Below are positions 31,038 through 55,060 of a stretch of 64,000 nucleotides of DNA, in pieces. Each line of letters starts with the position of its first letter. Position 1 is the stretch's first letter. A model generated the notes under the pieces. That model worked only from the letters and a program-made list of their open reading frames with translations, was not told the origin of the DNA and searched no databases. A program made the translations under genes and the position numbers. The stretch lies in the NCBI GenBank assembly GCA_034437735.1, contig DAOTTS010000093.1, positions 27,705 through 91,704 of the forward strand. The letters are read 5' to 3'. The DNA is from Anaerolineae bacterium (GTDB taxonomy: Bacteria; Chloroflexota; Anaerolineae; B4-G1; SLSP01).

Positions 31038-34000
31038 ATGGTGATGAACGCTCACGCACGGGACCGACAACGCACGCCCCCTCATCGAAGACCGTCACGT
31101 GCTTACCTCAAACCGCTTGGTTCCCCTTACATTATCGTTTCCTATCTGTTAGGTTTGCTAGCCCTCGGATTCTGCATAGAGGGGTTAAGACCAACGAACC
31201 ATCATCAGTCAATTCAAGCTGCACGCACAAAGAGCCAAACATTCAGCAGGGCGTCGAGTGCCCCTAGCGTCATCGTCAACGAAGTCGCCTGGGGAGGCAC
31301 CGAGGCCAGTGCTTTCGATGAATGGATTGAGCTTTACAATGTCACCGGAAAACCCCAATCTCTGGAAGGTTGGACGCTTGTTGCGAGTGACGGAAGCCCC
31401 GACATCCAGCTATCCGGTGAAATCCCGGCGTACGGATACTTCGTGATCGAGCGAACGGATGATGACACGATTCGCGACCGTCCAGCCGAACTGATAACCT
31501 CCTTCGGATCGGGCCTCAACAACAACGGCGAACAGCTGAACTTGATCGATCCCGCCGGCGATTTGATCGATACCGCCAATGGTAACGGAGGACCCTGGCC
31601 TAATGAAGATACCGGCGCATCCCCTACGTATCGGTCAATGGAACGTATCGATCCTAGGGCCATGGACCTGGACACACATTGGCAGAGTAACGACAGGAGC
31701 TTGACCTGCGGACAGGACGCCGATGGCAACCCCCTCAATGGCACCCCGGGTGCGATCAATGCGGCCTATTACCCATACTTCTCTCAGCACTCGGATCTTG
31801 CGATAGCCTCTGACTTCCCGGCGATGGTTCAAGCCGGCGACCGTATAACTGCTTATATCGATCTCCTAAATCGAGGTGGGCTTACCGCAACCCAGGTTAC
31901 ACTCACGGCGAGCCTACCGCCGAGCATCCATTACGAAGCTCAAAAGAGCGAGCGCTTTACCTTCAACGTGGCCGATCCCCAAACGCTTATCTGGCATCGA
32001 GCTCACCTGCATCCCGACACAGTCAATCCCTGCCGAATCACCCTGACCTTGCGTATGTCTCCTGCGCTTACTATTGGAACCAAGATGATGACCCGCTTAT
32101 CCGTGACTACGACCTCACCCGAGCTAAGAAACGATAATAACATCATGACGGCCAGCACCACAATTCAGGGCGTATCAGCGGATCTTATCCTAACCAAGAC
32201 GGGTATGACCGAGATCAAAGTCTTGAATCCACCCGAACTGTTCACTTATCACCTGAGCATCCATAATCGAGGGCCCGATGTCGCTTCTGGCGTATGGATC
32301 ACCGATCGGCTACCGGGAAATCTCAGGCTTTTCACGCAAACGAGTCCATTCTCTTTCACCTGGAATCGGACACTCTTGACGTGGCACGTGGGAGACTTAA
32401 GTCCCGATACAACCTATCCGATCACGCTGACGACCACATTCAACGATGGCTTGACCGAGTCTCTTACTAACCGAGCTGGCGCCAAGGCAGCAACGCCGGA
32501 TCCAGAGCCGGCCAACAACCAAGCGACCTGGAGAACCCAAGCCATCCCTACAGTACTCATATCCAGTGTGCTTTACGACGGCTACGCGTACCGGGATGCT
32601 GATGAAGCGGTCGGCATCACAAATATGGGCCCCCACCCTCTCTCGCTTCGTGATTGGGAACTCTGCAAAGATCGCTCAGGGCTTATCGATTGTGAACCTC
32701 TCCCCGCTATCACCGTAACCGAATCATCAGAAGCATGGATAACCAAGGACGCAGAGGCCTTTGCCGAGACGTTTGGATTCGCTCCTAAGGCCCAAATGGA
32801 GAACTGGCTGGGGCTGACGAACACAGGAGATGAAGCCCTATTGCGGAATCCAGACCATCAATGGGTGGATACGCTCGTCTACGGTGCCGGCACGTCGACC
32901 GTGCCCGGTTGGTCAGGGGATTCGGTAAAAGCTTACTATAACTTCCTCCGGGGGGAAACCGGGCAAATTCTCCATCGCATATCTGATGAACGGACCGGAT
33001 TGCCGGCTTACGACACCGACACGTGTCAAGATTGGATCCAGACCCCCGAAGACGCTGGAAACGGACGGCGAGTTCTATATCCAGGGTGGGATATGACGCC
33101 CCTCTTTTTCCCCCTATCCACAACAGAAACAGCCTCCACAACCCTGGCCATTGCGCCGGATCACGGATTCGAGTTCCTCAAAGACAGCCTGGAACGGGCA
33201 AACCACACGATCTTCATCGAGGTTTACACGCTGCGTCATCCCGACTTGATTGCGACATTGGCAGCAAAGGCCGCCGAGGGGGTTGAGGTCAAGGTGTTAC
33301 TGGAAGGATCTCCCGTTGGACTCGGCGTAAACTCACCCGAATGGCAGACTGAGTTACATGCATGTGGCGAAATCGAAGCGCACGGAGGCGAAGCCTGGTT
33401 TATGATTCACCGGCCTGAGGACCGCATTTATAATCGTTACAGCCATCTTCACCCCAAAATGATCATCATCGATGAAGAATGGCTGATCCTCAGTACCCAG
33501 AACCTCACGTATAGCAGCCTACCATCCGACGATAAACGGGATGGGACGGCAGGCACCCGAGGCGCTATCATCATAACTAACGCCCCTTCGGTCGTCCAAC
33601 GCGCGACAGAGATTATGACTCTTGACCTCGACCCGCAGAATCACGCCGACCTTCTCAGATGGAATCAGGGCTATTGGGAGACTTACGGTCCCGCCAACCC
33701 ACACGCCGTCGATCTATCCACGCCAAATTGGATCAGCTATACGCCCAAATTCACGGCCCCACTCAAGATAGCGGGAGACGTGCACTTTGAGCTCTTCACG
33801 GCACCGGAAGCCGCCTTACGCCAAACGGATGCGCTCCTAGGTTTGATCAGACAGGCCGGCTCGGGAGACAGCATCGATATTGAGCAGACGTATGAACACG
33901 TAGCGTGGGGAGAGGATCCCATCCTGGAGCCGAATCTTCGCCTACAAGCTTATCTGGAGGCCGCACATCGAGGCGCTCACGTGCGCATTCTGCTGAATGG

Positions 34001-34907
34001 CCAAGGGTTTATACCGGATTACGATCACCCCCCTGAGGAAAACCTTGAAACCGTTGCCTACGTCAAACAACAAGCGAGGGTCTATGGTTTGAATATGGAG
34101 GCTGCCGTGGGAAACCCGACGGGATTGGGAATTCACAACAAGATGGTGCTTGTCGATCTCGGGGAGGGACAGCAGTACGTACACCTAGGCTCGATCAACG
34201 GCAGTGAAACCTCAAGCAAGGTCAACCGTGAAATTGCGATCCAACTCCGGTCGGATGAGGCACACGCGTACTACTTGGCTATGTTCGAATATGACTGGTG
34301 GTCCTCCCACCCTATCTACCTACCGATCGTTACGCGAAATTACCAGCCCCCCGCCCCTCCAGTAGATCATCTGGTCATCAGCGAAGTCTATTATGCCGGC
34401 CCCGCCGACGCGGAGTGGGTCGAAATCTTCAATCCGACGGACAAACGCATAGACCTATCCGCCTATAGACTTGGCGATGCCGAGGCCCCCGACGTCTACG
34501 AATCTATGTTTCACTACCCGCCCGGGGTCACACTCGAACCGGAGGCGGTGCTGGTCATTGCCGTAAACGGCTTACAAACACCGGAGGCCGATCTGGAGTT
34601 CTACGAACATGCACCAGACGTACCGAATATGATCCCTGATCCTGACTGGGGAGATACACGTTATCCTTTTGCCTTGAGGAATCTTGGGGATCAGGTACTG
34701 CTGCTTGGGTCGAATAACAAGCCTGTGGACGTCGTGATCTGGGGCGATGCCAAATACCCCTATGTAAGTGCGCATCCGGGTGTGATCAATATGGCCGCAT
34801 CGCTCAGTCGCCAACCGGCTATCTATGACACCGACAACTGTGGGAAGGACTTTGTTGAAACTTATCCCTCAACGCCCGGAGAAATCCCGAAACTCTCCCA
34901 TCCGTAG
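31038..34907 (+). CDS. Large secreted/membrane-anchored protein: lamin-tail domain (LTD), DUF11-like beta repeats, a phospholipase D/nuclease domain with two HKD motifs, and a C-terminal LTD
   Basis: It has an RBS aaggag and an ATG at 31038; the ORF is open from 30717. A signal anchor reads IIVSYLLGLLALGF. LTDs read VIVNEVAWGG...EWIELYN and VISEVYYAG...EWVEIFN. The HKD motifs are HPKMIIIDEEWLILSTQN and HNKMVLVD...GSINGS. Confidence 0.75.
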   Translation: MVMNAHARDRQRTPPHRRPSRAYLKPLGSPYIIVSYLLGLLALGFCIEGLRPTNHHQSIQAARTKSQTFSRASSAPSVIVNEVAWGGTEASAFDEWIELYNVTGKPQSLEGWTLVASDGSPDIQLSGEIPAYGYFVIERTDDDTIRDRPAELITSFGSGLNNNGEQLNLIDPAGDLIDTANGNGGPWPNEDTGASPTYRSMERIDPRAMDLDTHWQSNDRSLTCGQDADGNPLNGTPGAINAAYYPYFSQHSDLAIASDFPAMVQAGDRITAYIDLLNRGGLTATQVTLTASLPPSIHYEAQKSERFTFNVADPQTLIWHRAHLHPDTVNPCRITLTLRMSPALTIGTKMMTRLSVTTTSPELRNDNNIMTASTTIQGVSADLILTKTGMTEIKVLNPPELFTYHLSIHNRGPDVASGVWITDRLPGNLRLFTQTSPFSFTWNRTLLTWHVGDLSPDTTYPITLTTTFNDGLTESLTNRAGAKAATPDPEPANNQATWRTQAIPTVLISSVLYDGYAYRDADEAVGITNMGPHPLSLRDWELCKDRSGLIDCEPLPAITVTESSEAWITKDAEAFAETFGFAPKAQMENWLGLTNTGDEALLRNPDHQWVDTLVYGAGTSTVPGWSGDSVKAYYNFLRGETGQILHRISDERTGLPAYDTDTCQDWIQTPEDAGNGRRVLYPGWDMTPLFFPLSTTETASTTLAIAPDHGFEFLKDSLERANHTIFIEVYTLRHPDLIATLAAKAAEGVEVKVLLEGSPVGLGVNSPEWQTELHACGEIEAHGGEAWFMIHRPEDRIYNRYSHLHPKMIIIDEEWLILSTQNLTYSSLPSDDKRDGTAGTRGAIIITNAPSVVQRATEIMTLDLDPQNHADLLRWNQGYWETYGPANPHAVDLSTPNWISYTPKFTAPLKIAGDVHFELFTAPEAALRQTDALLGLIRQAGSGDSIDIEQTYEHVAWGEDPILEPNLRLQAYLEAAHRGAHVRILLNGQGFIPDYDHPPEENLETVAYVKQQARVYGLNMEAAVGNPTGLGIHNKMVLVDLGEGQQYVHLGSINGSETSSKVNREIAIQLRSDEAHAYYLAMFEYDWWSSHPIYLPIVTRNYQPPAPPVDHLVISEVYYAGPADAEWVEIFNPTDKRIDLSAYRLGDAEAPDVYESMFHYPPGVTLEPEAVLVIAVNGLQTPEADLEFYEHAPDVPNMIPDPDWGDTRYPFALRNLGDQVLLLGSNNKPVDVVIWGDAKYPYVSAHPGVINMAASLSRQPAIYDTDNCGKDFVETYPSTPGEIPKLSHP

Positions 34908-35991: not shown

Positions 35992-36510
35992 ATGAGCCGA
36001 AAACAAAGATTCATACTCACGATCTTCGCATTGATTGACACGCTAGTCATTGCCCTGTTGGGCTATGTCGTCGTCAGCGAGAGCAATCACGCGTCCACAA
36101 ATTCAAACCGTGTCGCCCAAACGTCAAATCCGTGTAGCACCCATCTTCTAGATGAGCTGACCTTGAAATCGACGTATCGTCCGGTCATCGCATACAATCA
36201 ACACGACGGCGAGCTTTACGTAACCCTGCACACCCCAAACCCCTCACCAACAACGACCGTTATGGATGGAGGTCAGTCCCTTTGGACAGCACTCACCATC
36301 GTAGGGCCGCATCTTGCACGGCGATGTCCCTCCGTAGAGACGCTTCTCTTAATCGTTGAAAACACCACACCTCACGGTCCAGCGTATCACATTGCGCGTC
36401 TACCAGCACGAGCCGTCTCAAAATGGATCGATGGGGAGTTGAGTGACGATCAGCTCGCAGAAACCGCTGAATACCGCTATGTTCAACGCCGATCTCAAAC
36501 GCCCCCTTGA
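35992..36510 (+). CDS. Hypothetical membrane-anchored protein
   Basis: It has an N-terminal TM helix and no recognisable motifs. Confidence 0.4.
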   Translation: MSRKQRFILTIFALIDTLVIALLGYVVVSESNHASTNSNRVAQTSNPCSTHLLDELTLKSTYRPVIAYNQHDGELYVTLHTPNPSPTTTVMDGGQSLWTALTIVGPHLARRCPSVETLLLIVENTTPHGPAYHIARLPARAVSKWIDGELSDDQLAETAEYRYVQRRSQTPP

Positions 36511-36521
36511 ATTTCCCAGAG

Positions 36522-37811
36522 CTAGAAATCCACAAAGTATGATTGAGCCGCCCGATCAATGAGCTCTTTGCTCAACGTTGGGGGAATACTCAAATACCGA
36601 GCGATATCGATAATCTGATCAAGTAAGTCCCGGGCGTGACAAGCCCTGGGAGGACGCTGCTGCTTAATGTAATGTTCCTTGATAAGATAAGCCAGGGAAG
36701 ACTCAGTTAACTGCACATTCATTCCCTTGGCTACCCTCCTAAAGATTTCGGCGTATTCATCCCAGGTTGGATTGTTGACCTCAATTTTATGACGGATTCT
36801 GCGCAGAAACGCTTCATCCACCAGCTCTTGTGGCTCCAAATTCGTTGAGAACACAATGAGAACCTCGAAGGGTACCTCGAACTTCCGACCCGTGTGAAGA
36901 GTCATGAAGTCGATACGTTTCTCGAGCGGAACGATCCAACGATTGAGAAGGTCCGTCGGGCGAACCGTCTGTCTTCCGAAGTCATCAATCAGGAAGATAC
37001 CGCCGTTGGCTTTAACCTGATACGGAGCCTCATAATACTTGTAATCGTTATTATAGACGAGGTCCAACCCCTCTAGCGTCAACTCTCCCCCGACCACGAT
37101 AAAAGGACGCTGTATCTTCACCCATCGAGCGTCCACGCGATGAGACTGACTGGTTTCCACAATCTCGTGGTTGACATCGTCAAAGACTTTGATGATCTGT
37201 CCCTCAACCTCAATGGCATAGGGGATATACATATCCCCTTCCATAAGAAGCGAGCCAATGGCCTCGGCAATGGAGGTTTTGCCGTTACCTGGTGGACCAA
37301 ATAGAAAGATCGAGCGTCCTGAATTGATCGCCGGACCGATTTGTTCAAATGTCGATTCGGCAAAAACTAGATGTGATAGTGCATTGCGCAACTGTCTTTG
37401 ATGAACAGCAATATCTCGCAGTCCCTGTTTCCGAATCGCTTCCACATAGGATTTGAGAGGTACAGGAGCGGCGCCAACATATTGACCGCGCTCCAGGGCG
37501 TCTTGCGCCATCGTACGACCTCTGCTGGTTAGCACGTACTCGTAGGTGGATTCCGAAAAACCTCCGCGCCCAGAGGCACTGCGGACCTCACAGAGCTTCT
37601 CGCGCCGCAGAAATTCTAAAACGACTGAAACCACATTTGGGAATGGAAGTCCCATTCGATCTGCAAGATCGCGGCCCGCAAGATAACTCTCAAAGTACAG
37701 GGTTTTCAATGCCAGGTCAGAGAGCAATCCCATATTGAGACCCGTATCTTCAATATTCCGCGGCACCTGAGGCGTATAGCCCTGGTTCTGTGATTGGTTT
37801 GGTGGCACCAT
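36522..37811 (-). CDS. AAA+ ATPase of unknown function (N-terminal winged-helix-like region plus AAA+ core)
   Basis: Walker A reads LFGPPGNGKTS, Walker B GIFLIDDFG, sensor-1 FSTN and an arginine-finger-like FLRRIR. It lies 70 nt downstream of the alpha-2-macroglobulin gene on the same strand. Confidence 0.7.
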   Translation of the reverse strand: MVPPNQSQNQGYTPQVPRNIEDTGLNMGLLSDLALKTLYFESYLAGRDLADRMGLPFPNVVSVVLEFLRREKLCEVRSASGRGGFSESTYEYVLTSRGRTMAQDALERGQYVGAAPVPLKSYVEAIRKQGLRDIAVHQRQLRNALSHLVFAESTFEQIGPAINSGRSIFLFGPPGNGKTSIAEAIGSLLMEGDMYIPYAIEVEGQIIKVFDDVNHEIVETSQSHRVDARWVKIQRPFIVVGGELTLEGLDLVYNNDYKYYEAPYQVKANGGIFLIDDFGRQTVRPTDLLNRWIVPLEKRIDFMTLHTGRKFEVPFEVLIVFSTNLEPQELVDEAFLRRIRHKIEVNNPTWDEYAEIFRRVAKGMNVQLTESSLAYLIKEHYIKQQRPPRACHARDLLDQIIDIARYLSIPPTLSKELIDRAAQSYFVDF

Positions 37812-37880
37812 AATATACCTCCTAAGACTTCCAAGATGCCCAATGATAGCGGCTAGACATGATTAGAGATAAAAGCAGAC

Positions 37881-40800
37881 TTACTCACAGGGTAGGACCT
37901 CTATAGTCACAGCTTCGGTTCCGCCCCACACTTCTGGAAAATAAAGTTCGGAAACTGTCGCCGGGAGACTATGATAGGTCCCCGGAAACTTAGCTCGCAT
38001 CCAATACCGTGCCTGATATGTCCCTGGTGAAAGCTGACGCGCGAAAAAGTCAGCCTGGCTTTCGTGATACTCTCTACGTTCAAAGGGATCTAACCACTCA
38101 ACCGGTCCAGAATCAAGGGCGCCACCTACCCCCACTCCCTCTGCTTGATCTAGCAGCCCATTATTCACCGCACGAGCCGATCGAATAGCAAATCCAACAT
38201 CCGATTCCCTATACTGGATCGGCACGAATCCAGCAGGGAATAAATCCCGGACCCGTACATAATGACGTGTTGCAGGAATCACCACCGTTAACCGTACTTC
38301 GATGATATCCCCAACCGCCACCTTCTCTGTTTGCAAACATTCCGTAGCAACAGGCACGTGAAGAGTCTCTGAGCCTAGTATCTCTTGACGCGACATCTGA
38401 CAATATTGCCGATTGATACTCATCCCTCGGCTCTGGGATGATACCTCATCTATGGGCTGAAAGAGATGCAGGCTTGAGGCATAAAACAAACCACCGCTCC
38501 CAGACTTTCGAGTGAGAGATAGCAAATTGATGCCGTGCCGAAGCTCTTCTCCCAACGGAAGATCGAACGTCAATCCGGCTCCCAGCCTATCCTCACGCGT
38601 AGAGGAATCGTCCAAAAGAGAATGACCGTTGAGGGAGACATCGAAATCAAACGTACCCGTCGCAGAATCGTATTCTGCCATATACGTCGCTAATGAGGTG
38701 CTTGCCCACGCAGTCTCATAGACTGTGGGCCAACGGTCTAAGCGTCGAGCGCTCATAAGCCATCTGACAGCCTGAGGGAGGAGAGGGTCATCCGGTGATA
38801 AAACGGTGAGTGCCTCAACCGCTAAAGCCGTCACCTGGATATCCGTGGACCAGTGCTGACTATCAACATCCTCCCAATGTGCCCCCGTTGCAGTTATCCT
38901 GGCCTCAGATTGCAGATCTCCCAGCAACATGGCAACGCGAGGATCTGAGGGATCGACTGCGCCCAGCGCCAGCGCCAGATGAAAACGACCGGCTACCCCC
39001 AGGGCTTGGCGATCTCGATAAAGAATTGTTGCTGCCCCTGAAGGCCAAGGGCGATCCGCCTGAGAGAGCACCCGAATGGACAAAGCAAAATGAGGATAAC
39101 GCGAATCTGTTTGCAGGGCGCGCGTCATCATGGTCTCGATATAGTCCAGAGACCGGTCGATAACCCGGTCGGAGATGGGAAATCCTGCCGATCTAGCCCG
39201 AAGCAGGGTCATCGCCACATAACTTGTCATATGCAAGTTACTCCAGTCTCGCCACCACCCCCACCCCCCATCGGGATTCTGTCTCATCTGGATGCATTCA
39301 AGGGCTTCCGTGACCAGCGCCTCCATCTCTTTGACGTCCGCTTGTACCGACACATCCTGCATCTCCACTGCCTGTAAAGTAGCCAGCGACGTGAGTACCC
39401 AACTAGTCACGGCATCTGTGGCCCCATAGCTCGGCTGAGTGAGAAGTCCTTCCATCTGATCAATCAGACCAGAGGTAAGTGAAGTCTCAACGCTGAGTCT
39501 CAGTGCACTCGACATCGTCGCATTCATCGGGACGTGAAAAACTTCAATCCTCTCACCCGCTTCTCTTAAGACACCAGACGCGCCCTTGACATCGGGCATA
39601 TCCCACCGGTGAATAGGAATCGGATCGTCAAGGGTCATAACATCACGATAATCGCCCGCTTCAGCAGAGAAACTCAGCGTAGCAGAGGGCAACGAATCCT
39701 GGGACGCGTTCAAGGCCCAAAGAACCGGCATGCGCCCCATAGCCGGCACGACCACTTCTTGCACCAAGTTGCCCTCTACCGCAACCCCCTGAGCCTCAAT
39801 AGTCACTAGAGCGGTGAAATCTGAGGGCGTCCTGTTATGAACCACCGCCACAATCTCGGTTCGGTCCCCCACGACCAAGAATTCGGGGACCACGGGTTGT
39901 ACTGAAAGAGGTTGACGAACCTCAATTTCACGCTCAGTAACTCCTATCTCAGTCTCTTTTGTCGCTGCGGTCGCTCGCACCCGCCAAGTTGTTAAAGAAT
40001 CCGGGAGCTTCACCGATACCTCAACTTGACCATCTGGACCAGTTCTCAAAGCAGAATCCCAAAACGCCGTATCTGGGAAGTCCTGACGGATTCCAGGTAC
40101 TGTGGGCACTGTATCTCCTCCCCCAAGACCGGCTGGACCCTCCGAAAAAGCATAACCACTGGACGCTTCTATCTCCTCGCCCCATCGATTCATTAAAACG
40201 AGCAAAGTGTGACCTGACGAAACAGAAAGAGGATGCTCGCCATAGAAAGCTTCAACGATGGTTTGAGCCTCTGGCCCCCGTTTCAAGTCAAGTATCGCCT
40301 TATCTACGATCGAAAGGCTCACTTCGGCATCCACAGGCTGCCCCTCGTGATCGGAGGTTCGAACGGTCAACCGAGCTTCCTCACCGGGGCTGTACGTATC
40401 AAGATCCCCTTCAATTGAGACATCTAACAGATATTGAGACGGACTGACAGACACGTTAACGTAGCCAGCGCGCACATCGGGTCCCTGCTCGTCGGTCGCC
40501 GGGCGCACAGCTAATGCCGATACGTAAACGTTAGGCGCGTAGGCTTCCTCAATGGGTAGTTCAATGACAGGGTTAGGCTGATCGAAGACGAATCTCTTCA
40601 CCTTCAGCAAACTATCACGCTCCACGGTGAGCAACAATTGATAAGTCCCGGTAAAAGGAACCGGCACTAGGATTTGAGCACTCTCACCCACGTCGTAGAC
40701 CTGTGCGTCAGGCTTAAGAGCCATAACATCAGAGGTTGGATGCCACCCAAAGGAATCATCTCCGCTTACCCAGAGGGTCGTTTCCACAGCCACATCGTGC

Positions 40801-43800
40801 CCTTGTGCATCCTCGCTCTCCAACCTGACCACATAGTTCCCACTCCTCGGTGGGTTGAACACAGCAAGCGCATCACCATCAGCATCAGTCGTCAAAGTCG
40901 TTTCGGAGACAATCGAATCAATCGCTCGCCCAGGCGTGTTCTCACCATCATCAGATGCCCATGTTCTTCTGACTAACATCGCCGTGATTTCACGCTCCGG
41001 CAAAGGTTCGCCATCCCAATCGACAGCCCGAACCTCGATCTCAACACGTTCACGAGCGCGAACCATCCGTGCTTTCGGTCGAAGTCCAAGATACAGGTCA
41101 GCTTGATGAACAATCGCCTTACCAACAGCCGCAACGGGATCAGAAACGGGCAACTGAGACCTATCTGTCACTCGAACGTTCAAAGTCCACCTCTGGGACT
41201 CAACACTCTCGGAATCGCCCAAAGGGGTCAAGTCTGCCGGGAACTCCAAGAGGAGTCCCCCTGATTCATCAAGCGTACTTTTGCCTTGAGTAATCACCTT
41301 AGAAGACGCCCCAAAGGAATGACTATTCCACTGCCATCCCAGCTTGGACAATCGTTCAGACTCTCCCATGGCATAAGGAGCTGCCCTGAGCTCCCAATCA
41401 ACGGACCCATTTGAGAGACTCCCACCAGAGAAGTAGTCAGCCGCCACATGAAACTGCACGACCTCACCTTGACGGATATGCATAACATCAGGGAATACAT
41501 CCACTTGGAACGGCGACTTATGATATGCCTCAATGCTGACCCGCTTTGAGCCCCCGCCCATCCTCAAGGTTGCACGGTCACTGTTCTGTGAGTGAATCGA
41601 GGCATTGAGAACATATTCGCCTAATGCGATCATCTCTTCCAGATGGATCGAACCCGAGAAACTGCCAAACTCCGACAACGTAAGGGTTTCAGAATAGATC
41701 GGTCGCATATCGATAGTTTGCAGCGTTACGTCCACCTGAGTCTCTGCTCCCGGCACTTGATATGTACCTTCATACCCCTCACGCACCAACCCGTGGAAGT
41801 GCAACGTTTGCTCTGGTCGATAGAGCTCCCGATCCGTCTCCAGGAAAATACGAGAGGCTGGCGAGAGACCAGGGGCAAAATTGAGGCCGAACTCCCACGG
41901 AGAGGCCTCGCCAGACCAACCGGTCATTGCAATTCCGAAACCTGGTTCGCCGGCGGCCCCAATCACCGCGGCCACACGATTCCAGAGATTATCAACGGGG
42001 CTGATCGGGATTCTTGCCAAGCCTTCGTCATCCGTAGTTCCACCGGCAATGAGCAATCCTTGGTTGTCGATTAACCGCACCGCCGTACGCGTGATAGGCG
42101 ATCCGCTCTCCAAATCCGTGACCCAAACAACAGCCTCATCCCGCGTCAACTTAATGGAGATGTGACGATCGACAACGGCAATACCTAATCGACGAGGCCC
42201 GTAGTTTTGTCCCGGGATTTGCCACTCAAGCCCGTATAATCCAGTAGGAAGTGCACCACGCAATCTACGTAAGTACAGAGGAACGAGTTGACTCTGGTTG
42301 GGCGATAGATCGAAATCCTCAACCCATTCCCGCAATACGTCTCCCTCAGCGGAGGAATCCTGCCTGATAAACGTCGATTCGTCATATTGGCTGAGGACGA
42401 ACGAGATATCATCGGCATTCCTAGCCCCCAGATAAAGAACCGAGGGCTCGTCAGCGTTCATCGCCACCATGTCAGCAGCCATAGGCAGTTCTAAACGCAC
42501 AGGAAGATCTCCCGTGACGAAACATAAAGTTGTGGATTCTTCCAATGTATGCCCATAGATGTCGGAGACGCCGGATAAAACCTCAACACAATACTCTGTG
42601 CGAGGTTGGCGTTCCCATTGAAGGGTATATACGTTCGATATCTTATCGTAATATGTGTACAGACGCTCATCTTCAGGTTCGGGATCGATCTTTACATTAT
42701 CAGCCAGGGTCTTTTCATCGATGGCACCTGCAAAGTTGAGTTGGACAGGTCGGTTAAGTCCAACCAAAGTTTCGTTGTCATCCGGCGTATATCGAACGAG
42801 TTGGGGTTCGGAAACCGTATGAAAGGACCACATGCGCGGATTCTCCAAAGGCGCGCTGGTCCGCGCACGAGCTCGCGGACTCACCTGCACCGTGTAATCT
42901 GAATCCAGAACGAGCCTATCTGTCGGTGTGAATATCAACACAGCGCCATTATCACGCCAGCGAATCGTACCTGGGACAATGCGCTCGTCTTCGCTGACAA
43001 GATTGAATTCGCGTCCGGTGATTGCCTGATCCATAGGTGTGTTGAACGTAACACTAATGGCCGACGCCAAACGCACCTGTGCAAATCCAGACTCCGGAAA
43101 AACCGTCGTTATCCGGGGAGGAGCGGTTTCAAACGACCAATTAAAAGTTTCCTGAAGAACAGCCCCGCTTAGGCTTGCAACGCCTGAGGATAACGTAACG
43201 TTATAGCGCTCGCCGGCGCCCCACCCTGAGATGGGAGTGAAACGATAGAGCGAGGTATTCACCCACTCAGCTCGCCCCAGAACGGAAGGAGAGAACGTCA
43301 AGGGTAACTCAAGACACTCACCATCAGCTTGAACATACTCACCAACACAATGAATGGGAACAACGGGATGATTGAAAGCCAAGAGGATGTCTGTATCCCC
43401 GCGTAAATCAGAAGCACCATCTGGAGGATTGATTTGGGTAACGAGTAGCGGAGATACAGTGGAAAAAGCAAAGTTATACTCATCACCCATTTGAAGCCCA
43501 TCTTTTGATTGAGCAGCTGGGCCAAGCGACACTTGATAACGGGTTTGAGGATTCAAGCTCTCAGGATAAAATACCAATTCGGAGGTGTCGTCCCAGGCAA
43601 ACGCCCCCTCAACCTCTGGATAGAGGCTGAACGATTGGACGACACTCTCCTTATCCATAGGTTGATCAAAGACAAGCCGGATCTGGGTCGTCGTCGAGAC
43701 CACTTCACCTCGCCGAGGTTCAAAGTCTAGCACAAACGGGGGATACGGATCCGTGATTACAAAAGGCGTCGAAGTCGGAGGTAAGGTAGTTTCTGTCGGG

Positions 43801-43931
43801 GCAAGCGTCTCAGTCGCAGCCTCTGGCTGCGACGTTGCTCGAGTGGGTGATGTAGGTGTAGAAGTCTGACAGCCGGCCAAAATCACCACTAGGATGCAGA
43901 TGGCCAGTCCGATGAAACTGCGCTTATGCAT
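37881..43931 (-). CDS. Alpha-2-macroglobulin family lipoprotein (2,016 aa), thioester-less
   Basis: It has a lipoprotein signal (ILAGCQT). N-terminal SbsA-Ig-like repeats carry the P.V..F.P motif, followed by MG domains. An alpha/alpha-toroid TED region reads QNPDGGWGWW. At the thioester position GLLTQPSYGATDAV replaces the CGEQ thioester motif. Confidence 0.85.
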   Translation of the reverse strand: MHKRSFIGLAICILVVILAGCQTSTPTSPTRATSQPEAATETLAPTETTLPPTSTPFVITDPYPPFVLDFEPRRGEVVSTTTQIRLVFDQPMDKESVVQSFSLYPEVEGAFAWDDTSELVFYPESLNPQTRYQVSLGPAAQSKDGLQMGDEYNFAFSTVSPLLVTQINPPDGASDLRGDTDILLAFNHPVVPIHCVGEYVQADGECLELPLTFSPSVLGRAEWVNTSLYRFTPISGWGAGERYNVTLSSGVASLSGAVLQETFNWSFETAPPRITTVFPESGFAQVRLASAISVTFNTPMDQAITGREFNLVSEDERIVPGTIRWRDNGAVLIFTPTDRLVLDSDYTVQVSPRARARTSAPLENPRMWSFHTVSEPQLVRYTPDDNETLVGLNRPVQLNFAGAIDEKTLADNVKIDPEPEDERLYTYYDKISNVYTLQWERQPRTEYCVEVLSGVSDIYGHTLEESTTLCFVTGDLPVRLELPMAADMVAMNADEPSVLYLGARNADDISFVLSQYDESTFIRQDSSAEGDVLREWVEDFDLSPNQSQLVPLYLRRLRGALPTGLYGLEWQIPGQNYGPRRLGIAVVDRHISIKLTRDEAVVWVTDLESGSPITRTAVRLIDNQGLLIAGGTTDDEGLARIPISPVDNLWNRVAAVIGAAGEPGFGIAMTGWSGEASPWEFGLNFAPGLSPASRIFLETDRELYRPEQTLHFHGLVREGYEGTYQVPGAETQVDVTLQTIDMRPIYSETLTLSEFGSFSGSIHLEEMIALGEYVLNASIHSQNSDRATLRMGGGSKRVSIEAYHKSPFQVDVFPDVMHIRQGEVVQFHVAADYFSGGSLSNGSVDWELRAAPYAMGESERLSKLGWQWNSHSFGASSKVITQGKSTLDESGGLLLEFPADLTPLGDSESVESQRWTLNVRVTDRSQLPVSDPVAAVGKAIVHQADLYLGLRPKARMVRARERVEIEVRAVDWDGEPLPEREITAMLVRRTWASDDGENTPGRAIDSIVSETTLTTDADGDALAVFNPPRSGNYVVRLESEDAQGHDVAVETTLWVSGDDSFGWHPTSDVMALKPDAQVYDVGESAQILVPVPFTGTYQLLLTVERDSLLKVKRFVFDQPNPVIELPIEEAYAPNVYVSALAVRPATDEQGPDVRAGYVNVSVSPSQYLLDVSIEGDLDTYSPGEEARLTVRTSDHEGQPVDAEVSLSIVDKAILDLKRGPEAQTIVEAFYGEHPLSVSSGHTLLVLMNRWGEEIEASSGYAFSEGPAGLGGGDTVPTVPGIRQDFPDTAFWDSALRTGPDGQVEVSVKLPDSLTTWRVRATAATKETEIGVTEREIEVRQPLSVQPVVPEFLVVGDRTEIVAVVHNRTPSDFTALVTIEAQGVAVEGNLVQEVVVPAMGRMPVLWALNASQDSLPSATLSFSAEAGDYRDVMTLDDPIPIHRWDMPDVKGASGVLREAGERIEVFHVPMNATMSSALRLSVETSLTSGLIDQMEGLLTQPSYGATDAVTSWVLTSLATLQAVEMQDVSVQADVKEMEALVTEALECIQMRQNPDGGWGWWRDWSNLHMTSYVAMTLLRARSAGFPISDRVIDRSLDYIETMMTRALQTDSRYPHFALSIRVLSQADRPWPSGAATILYRDRQALGVAGRFHLALALGAVDPSDPRVAMLLGDLQSEARITATGAHWEDVDSQHWSTDIQVTALAVEALTVLSPDDPLLPQAVRWLMSARRLDRWPTVYETAWASTSLATYMAEYDSATGTFDFDVSLNGHSLLDDSSTREDRLGAGLTFDLPLGEELRHGINLLSLTRKSGSGGLFYASSLHLFQPIDEVSSQSRGMSINRQYCQMSRQEILGSETLHVPVATECLQTEKVAVGDIIEVRLTVVIPATRHYVRVRDLFPAGFVPIQYRESDVGFAIRSARAVNNGLLDQAEGVGVGGALDSGPVEWLDPFERREYHESQADFFARQLSPGTYQARYWMRAKFPGTYHSLPATVSELYFPEVWGGTEAVTIEVLPCE

Positions 43932-44107
43932 GAATAACCCGCCTCCTGAAAGACAAACCCAAAACAGAGCCGCACGCTTCTTAAATCACGACATCACAAA
44001 TCGGGAAGTGTTTTGCGCGAGGGATATATCCAACTGACGAAGAGGATTTCCCCATAATTTCATACGAAACCTCAACCCCATCATATTAACCCAGCATTGT
44101 CAAAACG

Positions 44108-44148
44108 CAAGCCACAAGCCCTCATTTTGAATGAGGGCTTGTGGCTTG
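44108..44148 (-). terminator. Strong hairpin terminator (19-bp stem, 3-nt loop) downstream of the YugP-like gene
   Basis: The stem pairs CAAGCCACAAGCCCTCATT with AATGAGGGCTTGTGGCTTG. On the minus strand it is followed by GTTTTG. Confidence 0.6.
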
Positions 44149-44176: not shown

Positions 44177-44869
44177 TTACCGCCTGCGGCGACGCATCCC
44201 GCCAAGAACCATCACATAGTACAACATCGTGGAAAGAGATTGCGCAAGAGCTGCAATGTAGGTAAGTGCAGCAGCGGATAACACCTTACGAGCTCCACGC
44301 ACCCCCTCAGATCCACTCACAATACCACTTTGTTTGAGAAGTGAAATCGCGCGCCGGCTGGCATCGAGTTCTACCGGCAGCGTCAGCAGAGAAAACACCA
44401 CAGCACCGGCGAAAAAGAAGACCCCGATAGTCGCAAGAGATTGGGAGCTGAGCATCATCCCTATGACAAAGAGAATCGGACCTAACCACGATGTAAAATT
44501 CACAACGGGGACTAGCCCGGACCGCAACCGAAGCAGTGCGAACGCTTGCGCATCTTGAACCGCGTGCCCAAACTCATGAGCTACAATCGCAACCGCCCCT
44601 ACGGATGAAGATCTGGCGACGTTGTTAGAGAGGCGCAAAACCTTCTTTCGGGGATCATAGTGATCGCTTAACTCGCCCTGCGTGCCCTCAATATGAAGCG
44701 AAAGCCCCGTGTGTTTCTGCAGCAACCGCGCCGCTTGCAGGCCATTAATCCCTGCATTGTTGGGTTTATCCAGATACTCACGATAGGTACTCCGCACTTT
44801 CCACTGCGCATAAAGCGCCAAGAGCAACGCCGGCAAACTGATCAGAAAATACGTCGGATTCCAAAACAT
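44177..44869 (-). CDS. Membrane zinc metallopeptidase, YugP-like (HExxH)
   Basis: It has an N-terminal TM helix, a zinc-binding motif HEFGHAVQD, and C-terminal TM helices. Confidence 0.7.
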   Translation of the reverse strand: MFWNPTYFLISLPALLLALYAQWKVRSTYREYLDKPNNAGINGLQAARLLQKHTGLSLHIEGTQGELSDHYDPRKKVLRLSNNVARSSSVGAVAIVAHEFGHAVQDAQAFALLRLRSGLVPVVNFTSWLGPILFVIGMMLSSQSLATIGVFFFAGAVVFSLLTLPVELDASRRAISLLKQSGIVSGSEGVRGARKVLSAAALTYIAALAQSLSTMLYYVMVLGGMRRRRR

Positions 44870-45161
44870 ACCGGCATCAACCTCCGAATCTTATTCAGGA
44901 AAGACTCACAACCAACGTTACAATCAATCGTACGGCCAATCCTCAGGTTTTATGCTACTCAATCGTATTCTACCCGACTTGACTTAGAATTCCATAAGAA
45001 ACCTGCACCACTGAATGCAGGAATGACAAACGGACTACCTTTCTGACCTCAAAGAGGAAAAGATAGTCCGCTTTTATAGGCGACCCACTACGGACCTTCA
45101 CAGCCTATGGGAGAACTACAATACGCCACTTAGCCTGACGTATCCGAGTTATGTCTCCTTC

Positions 45162-45917
45162 TCATTCAGAGTCCGATTGACGTTTCTCATAATCGATGAA
45201 TCGGTAGCCCATCCCCCGCTCAGTTAGGATGTACTGCGGATTTGACGTATCCGGTTCAATCTTTTTGCGTAGGTAGTTGATGTACAGGCGCAAATAGGAG
45301 ATTTCGTCCTTATACTCATACCCCCAGACCTTAGATAGGAGTGTGCTATGGGGAACGGTCCAACCGGCATTTTCAATGAGGTGACGTAACAGACGGAACT
45401 CGGTAGGTCTTAGTTTGATACGCTCGCCATCGACGATGACCTCAGCTGTGTTAAAATCTACACTAAGGTAATCGTCGATCTCCAGGACAGAGGTATCAGG
45501 CGGTGTCAAACTCTCAAACCGCCGAAGCACCGCTCTTACTCGGCTGACCAATTCGCGAGGACTAAACGGTTTCGTCACATAATCATCAGCACCGAGATCC
45601 AATCCTCGAACTTTGTCATCCTCAGAATCACGGACCGTGAGCATAATGATCGGCACGTTAGACGTTTCGCGAATCATCCGAAGCGTCTCGAAACCATCCA
45701 TCTCCGGCATCATCACGTCGAGCAGGACGAGGTCCGGCATCTTTTCGCGCACTTGATCGAGAGCTTCTAGACCGTTGTGAGCCTCAATGACCCGAAAATC
45801 CTCCATCTCCAGGTTGATACGGACGAACCGGATGATGCGCGGCTCATCATCCACAACAAGAATCAGGGGATGAAGGCCCGAGTCACTACTCACGGATGAA
45901 GGTAACGATCTGTTCAT
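45162..45917 (-). CDS. OmpR-family two-component response regulator
   Basis: The receiver reads LILVVDDEP...[11 protein letters not shown]...ITVRD. The winged-helix domain reads [12 protein letters not shown]...[12 protein letters not shown]...GYRF. Confidence 0.9.
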
Positions 45918-46128
45918 CTTCTTCTGTTGGCAGAATCTCTACGGAGTGAACACGGTTCCATGGATAAAGCACAACATTCGTTTCTGCTAAGAGATAGGTA
46001 ACCTCTCGCCCATCTCTCAATCGAGGACTTCTCAGTGCAATGTACTGAGCATTAGGATCAGGCAGTTCTTCAACGTCCCCTACAACTGCATCCTCGTTTT
46101 CAATGTGAACCAACAACGTATAGGGCAT
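45886..46128 (-). CDS. Small acidic hypothetical protein (80 aa)
   Basis: It has a strong RBS (AAAGGAG, 5-nt spacer). It lies between the FHA gene and the response-regulator gene and overlaps the regulator's start by 32 nt. Confidence 0.45.
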
Positions 46129-46196
46129 ATTAACTCCTTTGTGAACAAAAACCCATCAGGAATAACGATACTCAGCATTTTAAGGCAGCCGGGAGC

Positions 46197-46760
46197 TCAA
46201 TCCTCGTCACCAGGCGTATTCTTGTGAATGTGGACTTTGAGCTGCATAGTTCCAAATGTTAGTACATCTCCGTCACGAAATGCATAGGGAAGGTAAGGGG
46301 TCACCCGCTCCTCGTTCAGGAATGTTCCATTCGTGCTATCTAGGTCCTCCACGAAACAAGTGCCATCCCGAGTGTAAATACGGGCATGGCGTCTCGAGAC
46401 ACCTTGCTCTAGGCCGCCGTCCGTTGTCATATCAAGTTCCGGGAAAATCCCATGGGCTGCATCAAGTCGACCCACAAGGATTTCTCGATCTGCAGATAAA
46501 AGTATCTTCCGGCCCGTATTCAAAACATCAACCTCGATATTGATCGAACGGTTCTTCGCGTCTTCCCCTTCCCCATCCTGTCTCGGTCGAGCGGGTCGTT
46601 CATCCTCCTGATCGGGAAGAGGTTCGGTACGTAGAGGGCCACCCGAGGGCAGATAAGTTCCACACTGAACACAGAAAAGTGTACCGGGCAAATTATCAGC
46701 CCCGCACGATGGACACACTACCTTGCTATCCTTTTGAGTCATCGTTACCTCCCTTATCAA
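46197..46760 (-). CDS. Zinc-ribbon / FHA-domain protein
   Basis: The zinc ribbon reads CPSCGADN...CVQCG. The FHA region reads ILVGR...GVSRRHARIY...DLDSTNGTFLN. Its start overlaps the upstream stop as ATGA. Confidence 0.8.
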   Translation of the reverse strand: MIREVTMTQKDSKVVCPSCGADNLPGTLFCVQCGTYLPSGGPLRTEPLPDQEDERPARPRQDGEGEDAKNRSINIEVDVLNTGRKILLSADREILVGRLDAAHGIFPELDMTTDGGLEQGVSRRHARIYTRDGTCFVEDLDSTNGTFLNEERVTPYLPYAFRDGDVLTFGTMQLKVHIHKNTPGDED

Positions 46761-48220
46761 GACGAAGGAATGGAAAGGGCCCGTGTCCCATACCGAAGTT
46801 TTTTGCGCCCTTCAACTGTTGGCCCAGTACCCTGTGCGAGGCGTCCTACCTCCAGCATCGCAGCACGCCCCAATTCTCGATATCCCATATCAAACAAATG
46901 CGTTGCAGCAGATTCCAGATAACGCGTAGCCTGTTGCGGATCACCTGACTCAACAGACTGCCAGGCCTTCTCCTGAAGGCGGAAGACACTCAAACGGGCG
47001 ACCAGATTGAGCAGCCGAGGTGGAACCGATGTCTCCTCATGATTGTACGTGAAGTCAATGTGAACGTCCTGCTGCACACTAACGGTCTCTGAAGACTGGA
47101 CGTCCTTACCCGTAAGCTCCAATCTCATAATGCGCTTCGTGCCAATTTCATCATGATTCACAACCAATTCTAGAAGCAAGGTCAACGTATCCCGCCCAGA
47201 AACGTCCCCTATCTTGATAGACTGCCCCCTCTCAATAGGAAGAATCTCCATATGAGGAGAAACCCGAAAGGCGTTACGCAGCTCCACGTAAGGAACGACA
47301 CTAGCAAGCAGTTCCGTTTTGCGCAACACAAGATTAGTCAGTCCTTTAATCTCCGATTTCAGAGTTTCTCTTACCTTGGAAGGACTGTCGATGTAATAAG
47401 AGACACCGCCGCCGTAGCGCGCAACACTCTCGAGAAACAAATCATTCCAGTCTTCACCGATGCCAAAGGCTGAAATTCCTATACCATCATTGCCAGCCCG
47501 CCTTGCCGCTCGGAGCGCAAGCTCTTCATCACCATACGTACGCCCATCAGTAAACAGAATCACGTGATTAATCTTGTCATCAGCCCGGTGCCGTTGGACT
47601 TGTTTGATACCGAGAGACAGACCTTGATAGATCTCAGTGCCTCCGGCAGCAGTCATAGCTGCAATAGCCGATCGAAAACTATGCTGGTTACTAACGCTAT
47701 CGGAGGTCTTGATAACCTCAGCGCGATCACTGAAGGCAACCAAAGCTAAATGATCGTTTGGATGCAGAGAATCGACAAGTTCGTTCACTGCCATCTTAAC
47801 GTTATGCATCCGAGTCCCACGCATGGAGGTGCTACGATCAATGACCAATGCCAGATTCAAACGCTGGCGCGAATCGCGCAATTTCTCTTTCGGATGCACA
47901 TCCACCACCACGTAAAGCATCTGCCCATGCGACATCGGTTGGAGGGTCTCAGAGTTTAACAAGATCGATAAACTAATGGGAGCATCCTTATTCCGCCCCC
48001 GTTTGATCCGCTGTCGGTCATAAGCCCGGCGAAACGTTATGTCACCGAGCACTTCATAGGCCTCCTGAACCAAACGAAAGCGTGCAGCATCTCCGTGCGT
48101 TGCATCAGGATGATACTCGCGGGCTTTTTGACGGTAAGCCCTTTTAATCACATCTCGATCAGCATCCTCACTAACATCTAGAATACGATAGTAATCTCGA
48201 TTAGGATTAATCTCAACCAT
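46757..48220 (-). CDS. J-domain (DnaJ) / von Willebrand factor A domain protein
   Basis: The J domain reads DYYRILDV...AYRQKAREYHPD. The vWA MIDAS-like region reads LALVIDRSTSMRG...LVAFSD...ILFTDG. Confidence 0.8.
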   Translation of the reverse strand: MVEINPNRDYYRILDVSEDADRDVIKRAYRQKAREYHPDATHGDAARFRLVQEAYEVLGDITFRRAYDRQRIKRGRNKDAPISLSILLNSETLQPMSHGQMLYVVVDVHPKEKLRDSRQRLNLALVIDRSTSMRGTRMHNVKMAVNELVDSLHPNDHLALVAFSDRAEVIKTSDSVSNQHSFRSAIAAMTAAGGTEIYQGLSLGIKQVQRHRADDKINHVILFTDGRTYGDEELALRAARRAGNDGIGISAFGIGEDWNDLFLESVARYGGGVSYYIDSPSKVRETLKSEIKGLTNLVLRKTELLASVVPYVELRNAFRVSPHMEILPIERGQSIKIGDVSGRDTLTLLLELVVNHDEIGTKRIMRLELTGKDVQSSETVSVQQDVHIDFTYNHEETSVPPRLLNLVARLSVFRLQEKAWQSVESGDPQQATRYLESAATHLFDMGYRELGRAAMLEVGRLAQGTGPTVEGRKKLRYGTRALSIPSS

Positions 48221-48242
48221 AATAGGTTAGGCTTTCGAGAAT

Positions 48243-49232: not shown

Positions 49233-49298
49233 TCATCACCTCGAACTCTAAAAAATAGCGACTCAATAACTCCGGCAAAGTCAAGCTGAACGTCAGCC

Positions 49299-55015: not shown

Positions 55016-55060
55016 CCTAAACAGGCTGGGCTTATCGGGTCCAGCCGTTTTAATCGATGT

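Follow-up and report, generated by a model that had tools for sequence, protein, structure and literature searches.

A gene for an A2M-family protein is followed directly by a gene for an ATPase

On the reverse strand of the window, by which we mean the whole stretch of 64,000 nucleotides of Anaerolineae DNA that was analyzed, the gene for a 2,016-aa protein of the alpha-2-macroglobulin (A2M) family is followed directly by the gene for a 429-aa ATPase and preceded by a gene for a putative neutral zinc metallopeptidase (Table 1). Both open reading frames are as the first-pass annotation had claimed, with a gap of 69 nt between them where it had given 70 nt.

Table 1. Features of the A2M-ATPase locus, in window positions and in residues of the encoded proteins
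Feature	Residues	Positions	Strand	Basis
Winged-helix + AAA+ ATPase CDS, 429 aa		36522..37811	(-)	ORF, translation, model
Walker B, IFLIDD	272-277	36981-36998	(-)	
Walker A, GPPGNGKT	172-179	37275-37298	(-)	
Pre-sensor-1 hairpin	~300-314		(-)	predicted model
Winged helix	27-108	37488-37733	(-)	predicted model
Intergenic spacer, 69 nt, AGGAGG ribosome-binding site, no hairpin		37812..37880	(-)	sequence
A2M-family lipoprotein CDS, 2,016 aa		37881..43931	(-)	ORF, translation, Pfam
C-terminal bMG10	1836-2000	37932..38426	(-)	Pfam PF17973, E 2e-21
DGGWGWW, thioester-domain-like region	1554-1560	39252..39272	(-)	read from sequence
Degenerate thioester site, YGATDA	1502-1507	39411..39428	(-)	alignments; ATDA under CLEQ of YfhM
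A2M domain	1288-1377	39801..40070	(-)	Pfam PF00207, E 2e-21
Bait-like hypervariable segment, Gly-rich	~1241-1282	40086..40211	(-)	between A2M_BRD and A2M domain
MG body: bMG3, MG2, bMG6 (weak), A2M_BRD	591-683, 694-786, 949-1048, 1072-1216	40284..42161	(-)	Pfam
Big_5 (SbsA-type Ig-like) repeat region	~61-560	42252..43751	(-)	Pfam
Pro/Thr-rich tether, ahead of Big_5 region	22-60		(-)	
Signal peptide with lipobox, LAGC, Cys21	1-21	43869..43931	(-)	motif read from sequence
Intrinsic-terminator-like hairpin, between Zn_peptidase_2 and A2M genes		44101..44148	(-)	sequence, RNA fold
Putative neutral zinc metallopeptidase gene, PF04298 (Zn_peptidase_2)		44177..44869	(-)	Pfam E 1e-74

Pfam searches with the 2,016-aa protein returned Big_5 (four stretches, E 7e-43), bMG3, MG2, bMG6 (weak), A2M_BRD, A2M and bMG10. 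PF01835, PF11974, PF07703, PF00207 and PF17973 all scored above their gathering cut-offs, which places the protein in the A2M superfamily and bears out the bacterial A2M identity proposed at first pass; an identical 2,016-aa protein (P0391) is named "alpha-2-macroglobulin" in a source database. The N terminus reads MHKRSFIGLAICILVVILAGC and holds the lipobox. Most full-length members of the window A2M clade have an L[AT]GC motif at Cys21-24, and at the motif level the lipoprotein-type signal noted earlier holds, with the protein probably being lipid-anchored through its own lipobox. The four Big_5 stretches, Big_5 being the Pfam name of the SbsA-type Ig-like domain, correspond to the SbsA-Ig repeats that had been claimed for the N terminus. 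Conservation in this region (41-61% per 40-residue block) matches that of the A2M core, and two cysteine pairs, 195/206 and 448/470, are invariant.

The bait-like segment is the variable part of the protein, being 29% identical versus ~50% in its flanks and ranging in length from 29 to 48 residues (26 homologs). The DGGWGWW motif is kept, as had been reported, and Gln-1551, Asp-1554 and Trp-1557 are invariant in a 26-sequence alignment; the Pfam thioester-domain model found no match in the window A2M. The description of the protein as unusually long stands in comparison with E. coli YfhM (1,653 aa) and YfaS (1,534 aa), but not in comparison with its Chloroflexota relatives, which routinely reach 1,900-2,130 aa. 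By these measures the window A2M is a typical member of a Chloroflexota-wide family of ~2,000-aa proteins, in which Big_5 repeats are normal.

Apparent secondary loss of the thioester motif

A PDB sequence search with the window A2M found matches through its A2M domain only, to human A2M chains, and did not reach ECAM, so the E. coli K-12 proteins YfhM and YfaS were used as references, the latter being a pseudogene in that strain with one in-frame stop that was read through. The first-pass annotation had called the protein thioester-less and had proposed an alignment with YfhM as the check. In the MAFFT alignment ATDA (residues 1504-1507) falls under the CLEQ of YfhM, and the 2,016 residues contain no C-x-E-Q at all. 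Across 118 homologs aligned in the same way xTDx lies under CxEQ, and STEQ and TTEQ intermediates are present. The site in the window protein has changed from C to A, E to D and Q to A, and it is variable within the clade; the missing thioester is a clade-wide state and no sequencing accident.

In a neighbor-joining tree built on a fast MAFFT alignment, with a single Type II sequence included, the window clade is a monophyletic group nested among clades that bear CTEQ. When the bootstrap was run without the thioester-site columns, 50 of 60 replicates recovered the monophyly of the window clade and all 60 the enclosing clade with its CTEQ sisters. In the Chloroflexota family as a whole CxEQ is kept at 57/91 A2M loci and missing from 34/91. 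On this phylogeny the window clade lost CxEQ secondarily and independently, inside a CxEQ-bearing Chloroflexota family in which such loss appears to be recurrent.

The downstream gene encodes an AAA+ ATPase with a predicted winged helix

The 429-aa protein has the Walker A and Walker B motifs and the alpha/beta core followed by a helical lid that define an AAA+ ATPase. An AlphaFold model (pLDDT 91), made from an alignment of 33 sequences whose members are 37-80% identical, predicts an N-terminal winged helix, the AAA+ module, a pre-sensor-1 hairpin and, at the helix-2 position after strand 2, a beta-rich insert of ~70 residues; an earlier model from a shallow alignment (70-83% identical) reached pLDDT 50 and was discarded. 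The model upholds one part of the earlier description, an AAA+ ATPase with an N-terminal winged helix (~27-108, pLDDT 91). The other part, "DnaC/IstB-like," falls away: the protein matches no family model of the DnaC/IstB clade and its closest fold is not among these loaders. PDB sequence and profile searches gave P-loop-level matches only (midasin, spastin, p97) and placed the protein in no particular AAA+ clade; the closest structure is that of Pyrococcus furiosus Q8U0N8 (PDB 8p49), at 15% identity.

Two candidate identities were rejected. The best PADLOC matches to IetA of the IetAS anti-phage system cover only residues ~136-191 (E 6e-13, 47 bits), the NCBIfam model IteA gave 27 bits versus a cut-off of 510, and there is no neighboring S8 protease gene; the PADLOC matches to TRIP13 are likewise local only. 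Homologs of the ATPase number over 8,000, with identities of 70-94% across Anaerolineae, and there are 830 clusters at 50% identity at E<=1e-30; judged by these figures the family is widespread and slow-evolving, and it has no curated family model. The ATPase lacks a signal peptide, its fold is of a cytoplasmic type, and we take it to be a cytoplasmic and probably hexameric protein.

Conservation of the gene pair and its transcription units

The genome survey of the ATPase retained the best 80 of at least 600 matches and therefore samples mainly Anaerolineae. Within these best 80, an A2M gene lies upstream of the AAA+ gene at only 1/71 species-level genome loci, and a GDPD gene lies within 400 nt downstream of it at 41/77 loci. 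The AAA+-GDPD gaps are 1-6 nt or an overlap, versus 37-169 nt for the A2M-AAA+ gaps; no GDPD gene occurs elsewhere in the window. Seen from the A2M side, the AAA+ gene is downstream at 0/41 thioester-bearing loci versus 9/29 thioester-less loci, all of one clade. The same-strand adjacency is found at 10 loci in total (the window, L001, L002, L007, L087, L088, L094, L095, L101 and one Logan contig), and L091 and L092, among others, have a thioester-less A2M without an adjacent AAA+ gene. The claim of a new association has hence largely given way, because the AAA+ gene is seldom conserved next to A2Ms.

The boundary between the two genes is exactly where synteny ends, in both directions. The order AAA+-GDPD-EamA-LTD/PLD-GlgA-GH57 is kept at L003 and L004, with a different upstream region, and at L091 the order kinase-PP2C-DnaJ/VWA-FHA-RR-Zn_peptidase-HSP20-A2M is kept, with an alpha-amylase gene downstream. 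The PF04298 gene is upstream of the A2M gene at L087, L088, L091, L094, L095 and L007, not at L001 and L002, and it is still beside the A2M where the AAA+ gene is absent. The adjacent pairs show unequal rates of evolution, with identities of 75-93% for the AAA+ proteins against 29-65% for the A2Ms. Conserved order alone weighs little, because the whole 25-kb neighborhood is syntenic across the clade.

Consensus scans predicted neither a promoter nor a terminator in the 69-nt gap, whose folding is weaker than that of shuffled sequence (z = +2.5). Eleven close relatives, compared over the region ahead of the AAA+ gene, share no promoter-like element, only a Shine-Dalgarno sequence; the gap at L088 has a 19-bp hairpin (z = -3.3). 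With neither a terminator nor a recognizable promoter in the gap, the A2M and AAA+ genes may be co-transcribed in the window. The hairpin upstream of the A2M gene has a 19-bp perfect stem followed by GCGUUUUG and folds at -45 kcal/mol (z = -6.6), and this terminator-like position suggests that the A2M gene starts a new transcription unit. A simple terminator scan had missed this hairpin, and folding confirmed it.

Discussion

We consider it probable that the locus holds two functionally independent neighbor genes of one Anaerolineae lineage, an A2M with secondary thioester loss and an ATPase of a separate family. The A2M, laid out as lipoprotein signal, Pro/Thr tether, Big_5 stalk, MG domains, bait, thioester-domain-like region and MG10, would be exported and fixed by a lipid anchor to the outside of the cytoplasmic membrane. 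Its hypervariable bait segment would then be cut by a protease, foreign or stray, and the A2M would close round this protease and hold it non-covalently. We infer these three steps, and with them protease trapping by the window A2M, by analogy with Pseudomonas MagD, which traps a protease non-covalently after bait cleavage (PMC5764988). The ATPase would be a cytoplasmic member of a large, slowly evolving, uncharacterized family, whose usual neighbor, the GDPD phosphodiesterase gene immediately downstream, would have been lost in the window lineage. The adjacency would be inherited gene order at the point where two syntenic blocks meet, and read-through may still put both genes on one transcript in the window. 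The ATPase hence looks like a lineage-specific neighbor and not a new A2M partner, and functional pairing of the two is unlikely. Counted against this explanation are the persistence of the adjacency while the A2Ms diverged to ~30% identity, its restriction to thioester-less A2Ms, and the gap without terminator or recognizable promoter, across which the two genes may be co-transcribed.

The window A2M had also been called YfaS-like, and orthology with the proteobacterial thioester-less class, Type II (YfaS/MagD), was what pairwise BLASTP first suggested, YfaS (8e-28) matching more strongly than YfhM (6e-12). The absence of CxEQ and the JGI label "YfaS (alpha-2-macroglobulin family)" on some relatives point the same way, but the assignment did not survive the alignment of the family and the neighbor-joining tree with its bootstrap: YfaS, the one Type II sequence included, never groups with the window clade and is its sister in 0/60 replicates, the clade being nested among CTEQ-bearing relatives. 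YfaA, YfaT, YfaQ and YfaP gave chance-level tblastn matches only in the 64-kb window (E<=1), DUF2138, DUF1175, DUF2300 and DUF2135 are absent from Pfam scans of its ORFs, and we hold Type II orthology to be extremely unlikely. A different possibility, improbable yet deserving some weight, is that the protein stopped trapping after thioester loss and became a structural or adhesive envelope protein on an Ig-like stalk. Full decay of the thioester site, variable within the clade, would fit such a scaffold, as would the undetected Pfam thioester domain, a Big_5 region conserved at least as well as the A2M body, and the lost PBP1C linkage. It has to be set against the retention of all MG domains, A2M_BRD, A2M, MG10 and a thioester-domain-sized region with DGGWGWW, against a bait-like segment whose sequence and length are both hypervariable, which is what diversifying pressure on a trap should produce, and against the finding that MagD traps without a thioester (PMC5764988).

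The two genes might also form an operon working together, for instance with the ATPase regulating the envelope trap or being co-regulated with it, which we think very unlikely. They share a strand, with a ribosome-binding site and no terminator in the gap, and the strong terminator upstream of the A2M means that a transcription unit may start there; the adjacency recurs in at least 9 related loci despite A2M divergence to 29-40% identity, and with thioester-less A2Ms only (9/29 vs 0/41). However, the A2M is exported and lipid-anchored by its predicted signal whereas the ATPase has no signal peptide, the AAA+ family lacks an A2M neighbor in 70/71 genome loci (among the best 80 of at least 600 matches) and has its tight partner in GDPD, and 20 other thioester-less A2M loci do without the ATPase. 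The break in synteny between the genes in either direction, a variable, unconserved spacer with a hairpin at L088, and the little weight of gene order within a 25-kb syntenic neighborhood also speak against the operon. There is, in the same way, only a slim chance that in one Anaerolineae lineage an A2M left without thioester and PBP1C was captured into a transcription unit with the AAA+ ATPase and acts with it, possibly in sensing and responding to envelope proteolysis, with the ATPase co-expressed with the surface trap or controlling it; if true, bacterial A2M systems would come in three kinds, this pair joining A2M-PBP1C and the Mag operon.

The window A2M belongs, as an ordinary member, to an already annotated family that has been little studied. 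The ATPase family, whose usual companion in Anaerolineae is a GDPD phosphodiesterase, may be the better target of study. Our literature searches found no papers linking A2M with Chloroflexota. Among Chloroflexota A2Ms a PBP1C-like gene is adjacent at 8/22 CxEQ loci versus 1/21 non-CxEQ loci, so that loss of the thioester is accompanied by loss of the PBP1C neighbor. This pattern independently mirrors the Type I/Type II split described in Proteobacteria and supports a functional tie of covalent capture to cell-wall repair.

Comparison with known systems

For the ATPase, the nearest solved structure, Q8U0N8 (8p49), is a ring-forming hexamer that is itself uncharacterized. The window ATPase shows no sequence relationship to it beyond the P-loop and is set apart by its winged-helix N-terminal domain and the ~70-residue beta-rich insert. 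The predicted pre-sensor-1 hairpin would be common to the AAA+ clades that carry one (LonB, NtrC-type activators, MCM, MoxR/CbbQ, ComM).

The closest relatives of the window A2M, the Chloroflexota Big_5-A2M proteins (such as P0331, P0308 and P0345), are alike in architecture and length (1,900-2,130 aa) at 27-66% identity; they are uncharacterized and annotated as "Ig-like domain-containing protein" or "alpha-2-macroglobulin." Unlike the window A2M, many members (57/91 loci) have CxEQ, and some adjoin or are fused with PBP1C, P0345 being an A2M-PBP fusion and the A2M of L090 lying convergent with a Transgly/Transpeptidase/BiPBP_C gene. Others have an N-terminal transmembrane segment instead of a lipobox and lie beside an ECF sigma factor. 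The partners that the first-pass annotation had named as usual for A2Ms, PBP1C and the yfa genes, were not seen by Pfam scans and tblastn of the 64-kb window: the scanned ORFs have no Transgly or Transpeptidase domain, and E. coli PbpC and the L090 PBP as tblastn queries gave chance-level matches only.

With the Type I proteins (E. coli YfhM/ECAM, Salmonella Sa-A2M) the window A2M shares, at the motif level, a lipoprotein-type N terminus, and also the MG body, bait-region domain, A2M domain, thioester-domain-sized region and MG10. Type I genes are often beside a PBP1C-like gene, as are the CxEQ-bearing relatives from which the window clade would descend, but pbpC adjacency is not seen at the window A2M. 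The latter also differs in having ATDA for the CLEQ of YfhM and an N-terminal extension of ~500 residues made up of Big_5 Ig-like repeats, with ~21% identity to YfhM. The Chloroflexota envelope, in contrast to that of Type I hosts, may lack a classical periplasm.

The Type II proteins (P. aeruginosa MagD, E. coli YfaS) have no CxEQ and keep a bait region, as does the window A2M, although the two thioester losses appear to be independent. The six-gene mag/yfa operon was not found around the window A2M by Pfam scans and tblastn. MagD is membrane-held through MagB, whereas the window protein would be held through its own lipobox, and the Big_5 stalk is present only in the window A2M and not in MagD/YfaS. 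By analogy, MagD nonetheless offers the best working model for how the window A2M may act.

Anatomy of the alpha-2-macroglobulin

ORF calls and translation confirmed both reading frames where the first-pass annotation had placed them, with a 69-nt spacer between the alpha-2-macroglobulin (A2M) gene and the AAA+ gene that follows it. The A2M N terminus, MHKRSFIGLAICILVVILAGC, has a lipobox at its end and then a Pro/Thr-rich tether, so that the lipoprotein type proposed earlier can be read in the sequence, and lipidation itself would be expected. The domain order in Pfam is Big_5 (four stretches), bMG3, MG2, bMG6 (weak), A2M_BRD, A2M, and bMG10; Big_5, the Pfam name for the SbsA-type Ig-like domain, bears out the predicted N-terminal repeats. 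Between A2M_BRD and the A2M domain sits a Gly-rich segment (∼1241–1282) that is hypervariable among homologs (29% identity versus ∼50% in its flanks; 29–48 residues), as would be expected of a bait region, and three invariant cysteine pairs (195/206, 448/470, and 1844/1865) fit an extracytoplasmic location. The protein had been called unusually long, which is true solely against enterobacterial proteins, because a homolog search found 1,900–2,130-residue Big_5 plus A2M architectures to be usual among Anaerolineae and elsewhere in the Chloroflexota.

Positions of the features discussed (window coordinates unless a locus or protein is named)
Feature	Position	Strand	Remark
A2M CDS	37881-43931	-	ORF, 2,016 aa
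AAA+ ATPase CDS	36522-37811	-	ORF, 429 aa
DGGWGWW motif	A2M aa 1554-1560		sequence
Hairpin and U-run	44101-44148	-	between the Zn_peptidase_2 gene and A2M
Signaling block	44177-51434	-	upstream of A2M, conserved
172-aa ORF	35992-36510	+	N-terminal hydrophobic helix, no Pfam match
GH3-family protein	2934-5813	+	959 aa
PMT_2 + DUF2298 membrane protein	22701-27719	-	1,672 aa, very large and envelope-type; two separate genes in relatives (L001)
Envelope-type protein	30717-34907	+	1,396 aa, very large; Lamin-tail, DUF11, two PLD-like domains
tRNA-His(GTG), tRNA-Arg(TCG)	54943-55135	+	side by side
PBP-type gene of L090	L090:14084-16558
P0308 gene	L089:7444-14309		ECF-type sigma-70 gene ends 5 nt upstream

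Loss of the thioester and absence of the usual partners

Using the E. coli YfhM and YfaS sequences drawn from the K-12 record, we found that the CLEQ of YfhM aligns over ATDA (residues 1504–1507, inside YGATDA), and no C-x-E-Q motif occurs anywhere in the window protein; the claim that it is thioester-less thus stands, as does retention of DGGWGWW. Many of 118 aligned homologs keep the thioester motif in the conserved context YPYE-CTEQ-TVSRFLPN; at this site the window protein and those closer to it read S/T/A-T-D-x. In a neighbor-joining tree these thioester-less proteins form a monophyletic group lying amid CTEQ-bearing ones, with YfaS placed elsewhere. Without the thioester-site columns, 50 of 60 bootstraps supported the thioester-less clade and all 60 the enclosing clade, CTEQ sisters included; in none was YfaS sister to the window's clade. 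Replacements of the cysteine only (STEQ and TTEQ) exist as intermediates. Together these data argue that the window A2M descends from a Type I-like lineage and lost its thioester secondarily, its likeness to YfaS and MagD reflecting convergence only. The description "YfaS-like, non-covalent" therefore holds for the missing thioester and fails for kinship; a higher pairwise BLASTP score with YfaS is misleading, judged by the tree and bootstraps.

Of 91 A2M loci compared (the window, 80 loci found by a metagenome scan, and ten obtained beforehand), CxEQ is present in 57 and absent in 34, and thioester losses have been numerous among Chloroflexota A2Ms. The usual partners listed in the first-pass annotation are lacking: Pfam scans of ORFs and tblastn found no homolog of PBP1C or of YfaA, YfaT, YfaQ, or YfaP within the 64 kb. 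Elsewhere, in L090, the thioester-bearing A2M gene faces a convergent Transgly/Transpeptidase/BiPBP_C gene, and P0345 (2,893 aa) is a direct A2M-PBP fusion with Transgly and Transpeptidase domains. Where each flank reached 2.5 kb or more, A2M adjoins a PBP1C-like gene in 8/22 CxEQ loci versus 1/21 without; thus, members of this family have often lost the thioester, and the PBP1C link tends to disappear with it. One CTEQ-bearing subgroup (P0308, P0309, P0313, P0314, P0317, and P0318) has no lipobox, but a ∼75-residue cytoplasmic N-terminal segment and one transmembrane helix; together with the adjacent sigma factor gene of P0308, this gives a layout reminiscent of a fusion between an anti-sigma factor and an A2M.

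The A2M-AAA+ junction

A 19-bp hairpin with a perfect stem and a U-run after it (−45 kcal/mol, z = −6.6; stem-loop, then GCGUUUUG) lies upstream of A2M and is a strong candidate for an intrinsic terminator, although a simple terminator scan did not call it; A2M is thus probably first in its transcription unit. The 69-nt spacer has a good AGGAGG ahead of the AAA+ gene, and within it RNA folding found no hairpin (z = +2.5) and a promoter scan no consensus promoter, making co-transcription by read-through possible in the window.

Such adjacency might signal a new association, as the first-pass annotation suggested, and our survey does find the genes as neighbors in 9/29 thioester-less loci. All nine belong to the window's clade, however; none of 41 thioester-bearing loci has the AAA+ gene downstream, and A2M flanks it in only one (L007) of 71 AAA+ loci among the best 80 of at least 600 matches. 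These came from a one-genome-per-species scan (chiefly Anaerolineae, with Roseiflexus, Herpetosiphon-type, Oscillochloris, and myxobacterial records), searched by tblastn, the queries being the A2M core, YfhM, and YfaS (71 loci with at least 1 kb upstream, 50 with at least 6 kb). The decisive loci are L003/L004 and L091. In L003/L004 (AAA+ 70% identical) the downstream block is kept (GDPD, a small membrane protein, EamA, an LTD/PLD protein, glycogen synthase, GH57, and DUF2298) and the genes upstream are unrelated; in L091 (A2M 39% identical, SSDG at the thioester site) the upstream block is kept (Ser/Thr kinase, PP2C, DnaJ-VWA, FHA, response regulator, Zn_peptidase_2, HSP20, and A2M), followed by an alpha-amylase gene. 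This retention marks the junction as the boundary of two syntenic blocks. In adjacent pairs the AAA+ proteins are 75–93% identical versus 29–65% for the A2Ms, and the spacer ranges from 37 to 169 nt, with the ribosome-binding site its sole conserved part and a 19-bp hairpin in L088. A new A2M-AAA+ system seems very improbable.

The window's signaling block comprises a Ser/Thr kinase with a PQQ beta-propeller, a PP2C phosphatase, a DnaJ-VWA protein, a zinc-ribbon-FHA protein, an OmpR-type response regulator, and a PF04298 zinc metallopeptidase; it stays with A2M in L087, L088, and L091, with HSP20 and a small GTPase added in some relatives.

The AAA+ ATPase and its neighbors

The ATPase had been termed an orphan. 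Among the best 80 of at least 600 matches, a GDPD phosphodiesterase gene lies directly downstream on the same strand in 41/77 loci, with a junction of 1–6 nt or an overlap; the ATPase looks orphan here because this gene is missing from the window, as it is from its closest relative, L087. A membrane-anchored GH3-like protein gene recurs beyond GDPD, and RecJ and a divergent GT2 glycosyltransferase-like gene (GT2 by reading of the sequence) recur upstream. In many other Anaerolineae the GH3-like gene is 2–3 genes downstream; the GH3-family gene of the window, possibly its counterpart, is ∼31 kb away, which may suggest rearrangement in this lineage. The 172-aa ORF is convergent with the AAA+ gene, ending 11 nt from its stop codon, and since homologs (24–52% identity) occupy the same place in L087, L088, L001, L002, and L003, it is a genuine gene of the downstream block and evolves fast.

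Sequence searches assign the ATPase to AAA+ through the P-loop region alone. DnaC/IstB membership, proposed earlier, is unsupported, the IstB/DnaC models scoring far under their cut-offs and covering only the P-loop. An AlphaFold model from a 33-sequence alignment (pLDDT 91, pTM 0.86) has an N-terminal winged helix (∼27–108), as anticipated, an AAA+ core with a ∼70-residue beta-rich insert after strand 2 and a beta-hairpin (300–314) before sensor 1, and a helical lid. The closest solved structure, 8p49, is itself uncharacterized; its structure paper describes a hexamer that forms a ring, has a flexible N-terminal domain, and lacks any Pfam assignment, and the ATPase presumably forms a hexamer. 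Homologs exceed 8,000 (70–94% identity across Anaerolineae), with 830 cluster representatives (50% identity) at E ≤ 1e-30 matching full-length at 38–53% identity. This winged-helix AAA+ family is very large and slow-evolving, and has no full-length Pfam or NCBIfam model.

Comparison with known systems

On the best-supported reading, the A2M would be a lipid-anchored, non-covalent protease trap raised outside the cytoplasm on an Ig-like stalk, and the ATPase beside it an unrelated, conserved cytoplasmic winged-helix protein. The window A2M adds to a known kind. A source database already labels the identical protein alpha-2-macroglobulin. MagD traps a protease without a thioester (PMC5764988); the window protein shares that lack, and would hold its protease non-covalently with MagD as the model.
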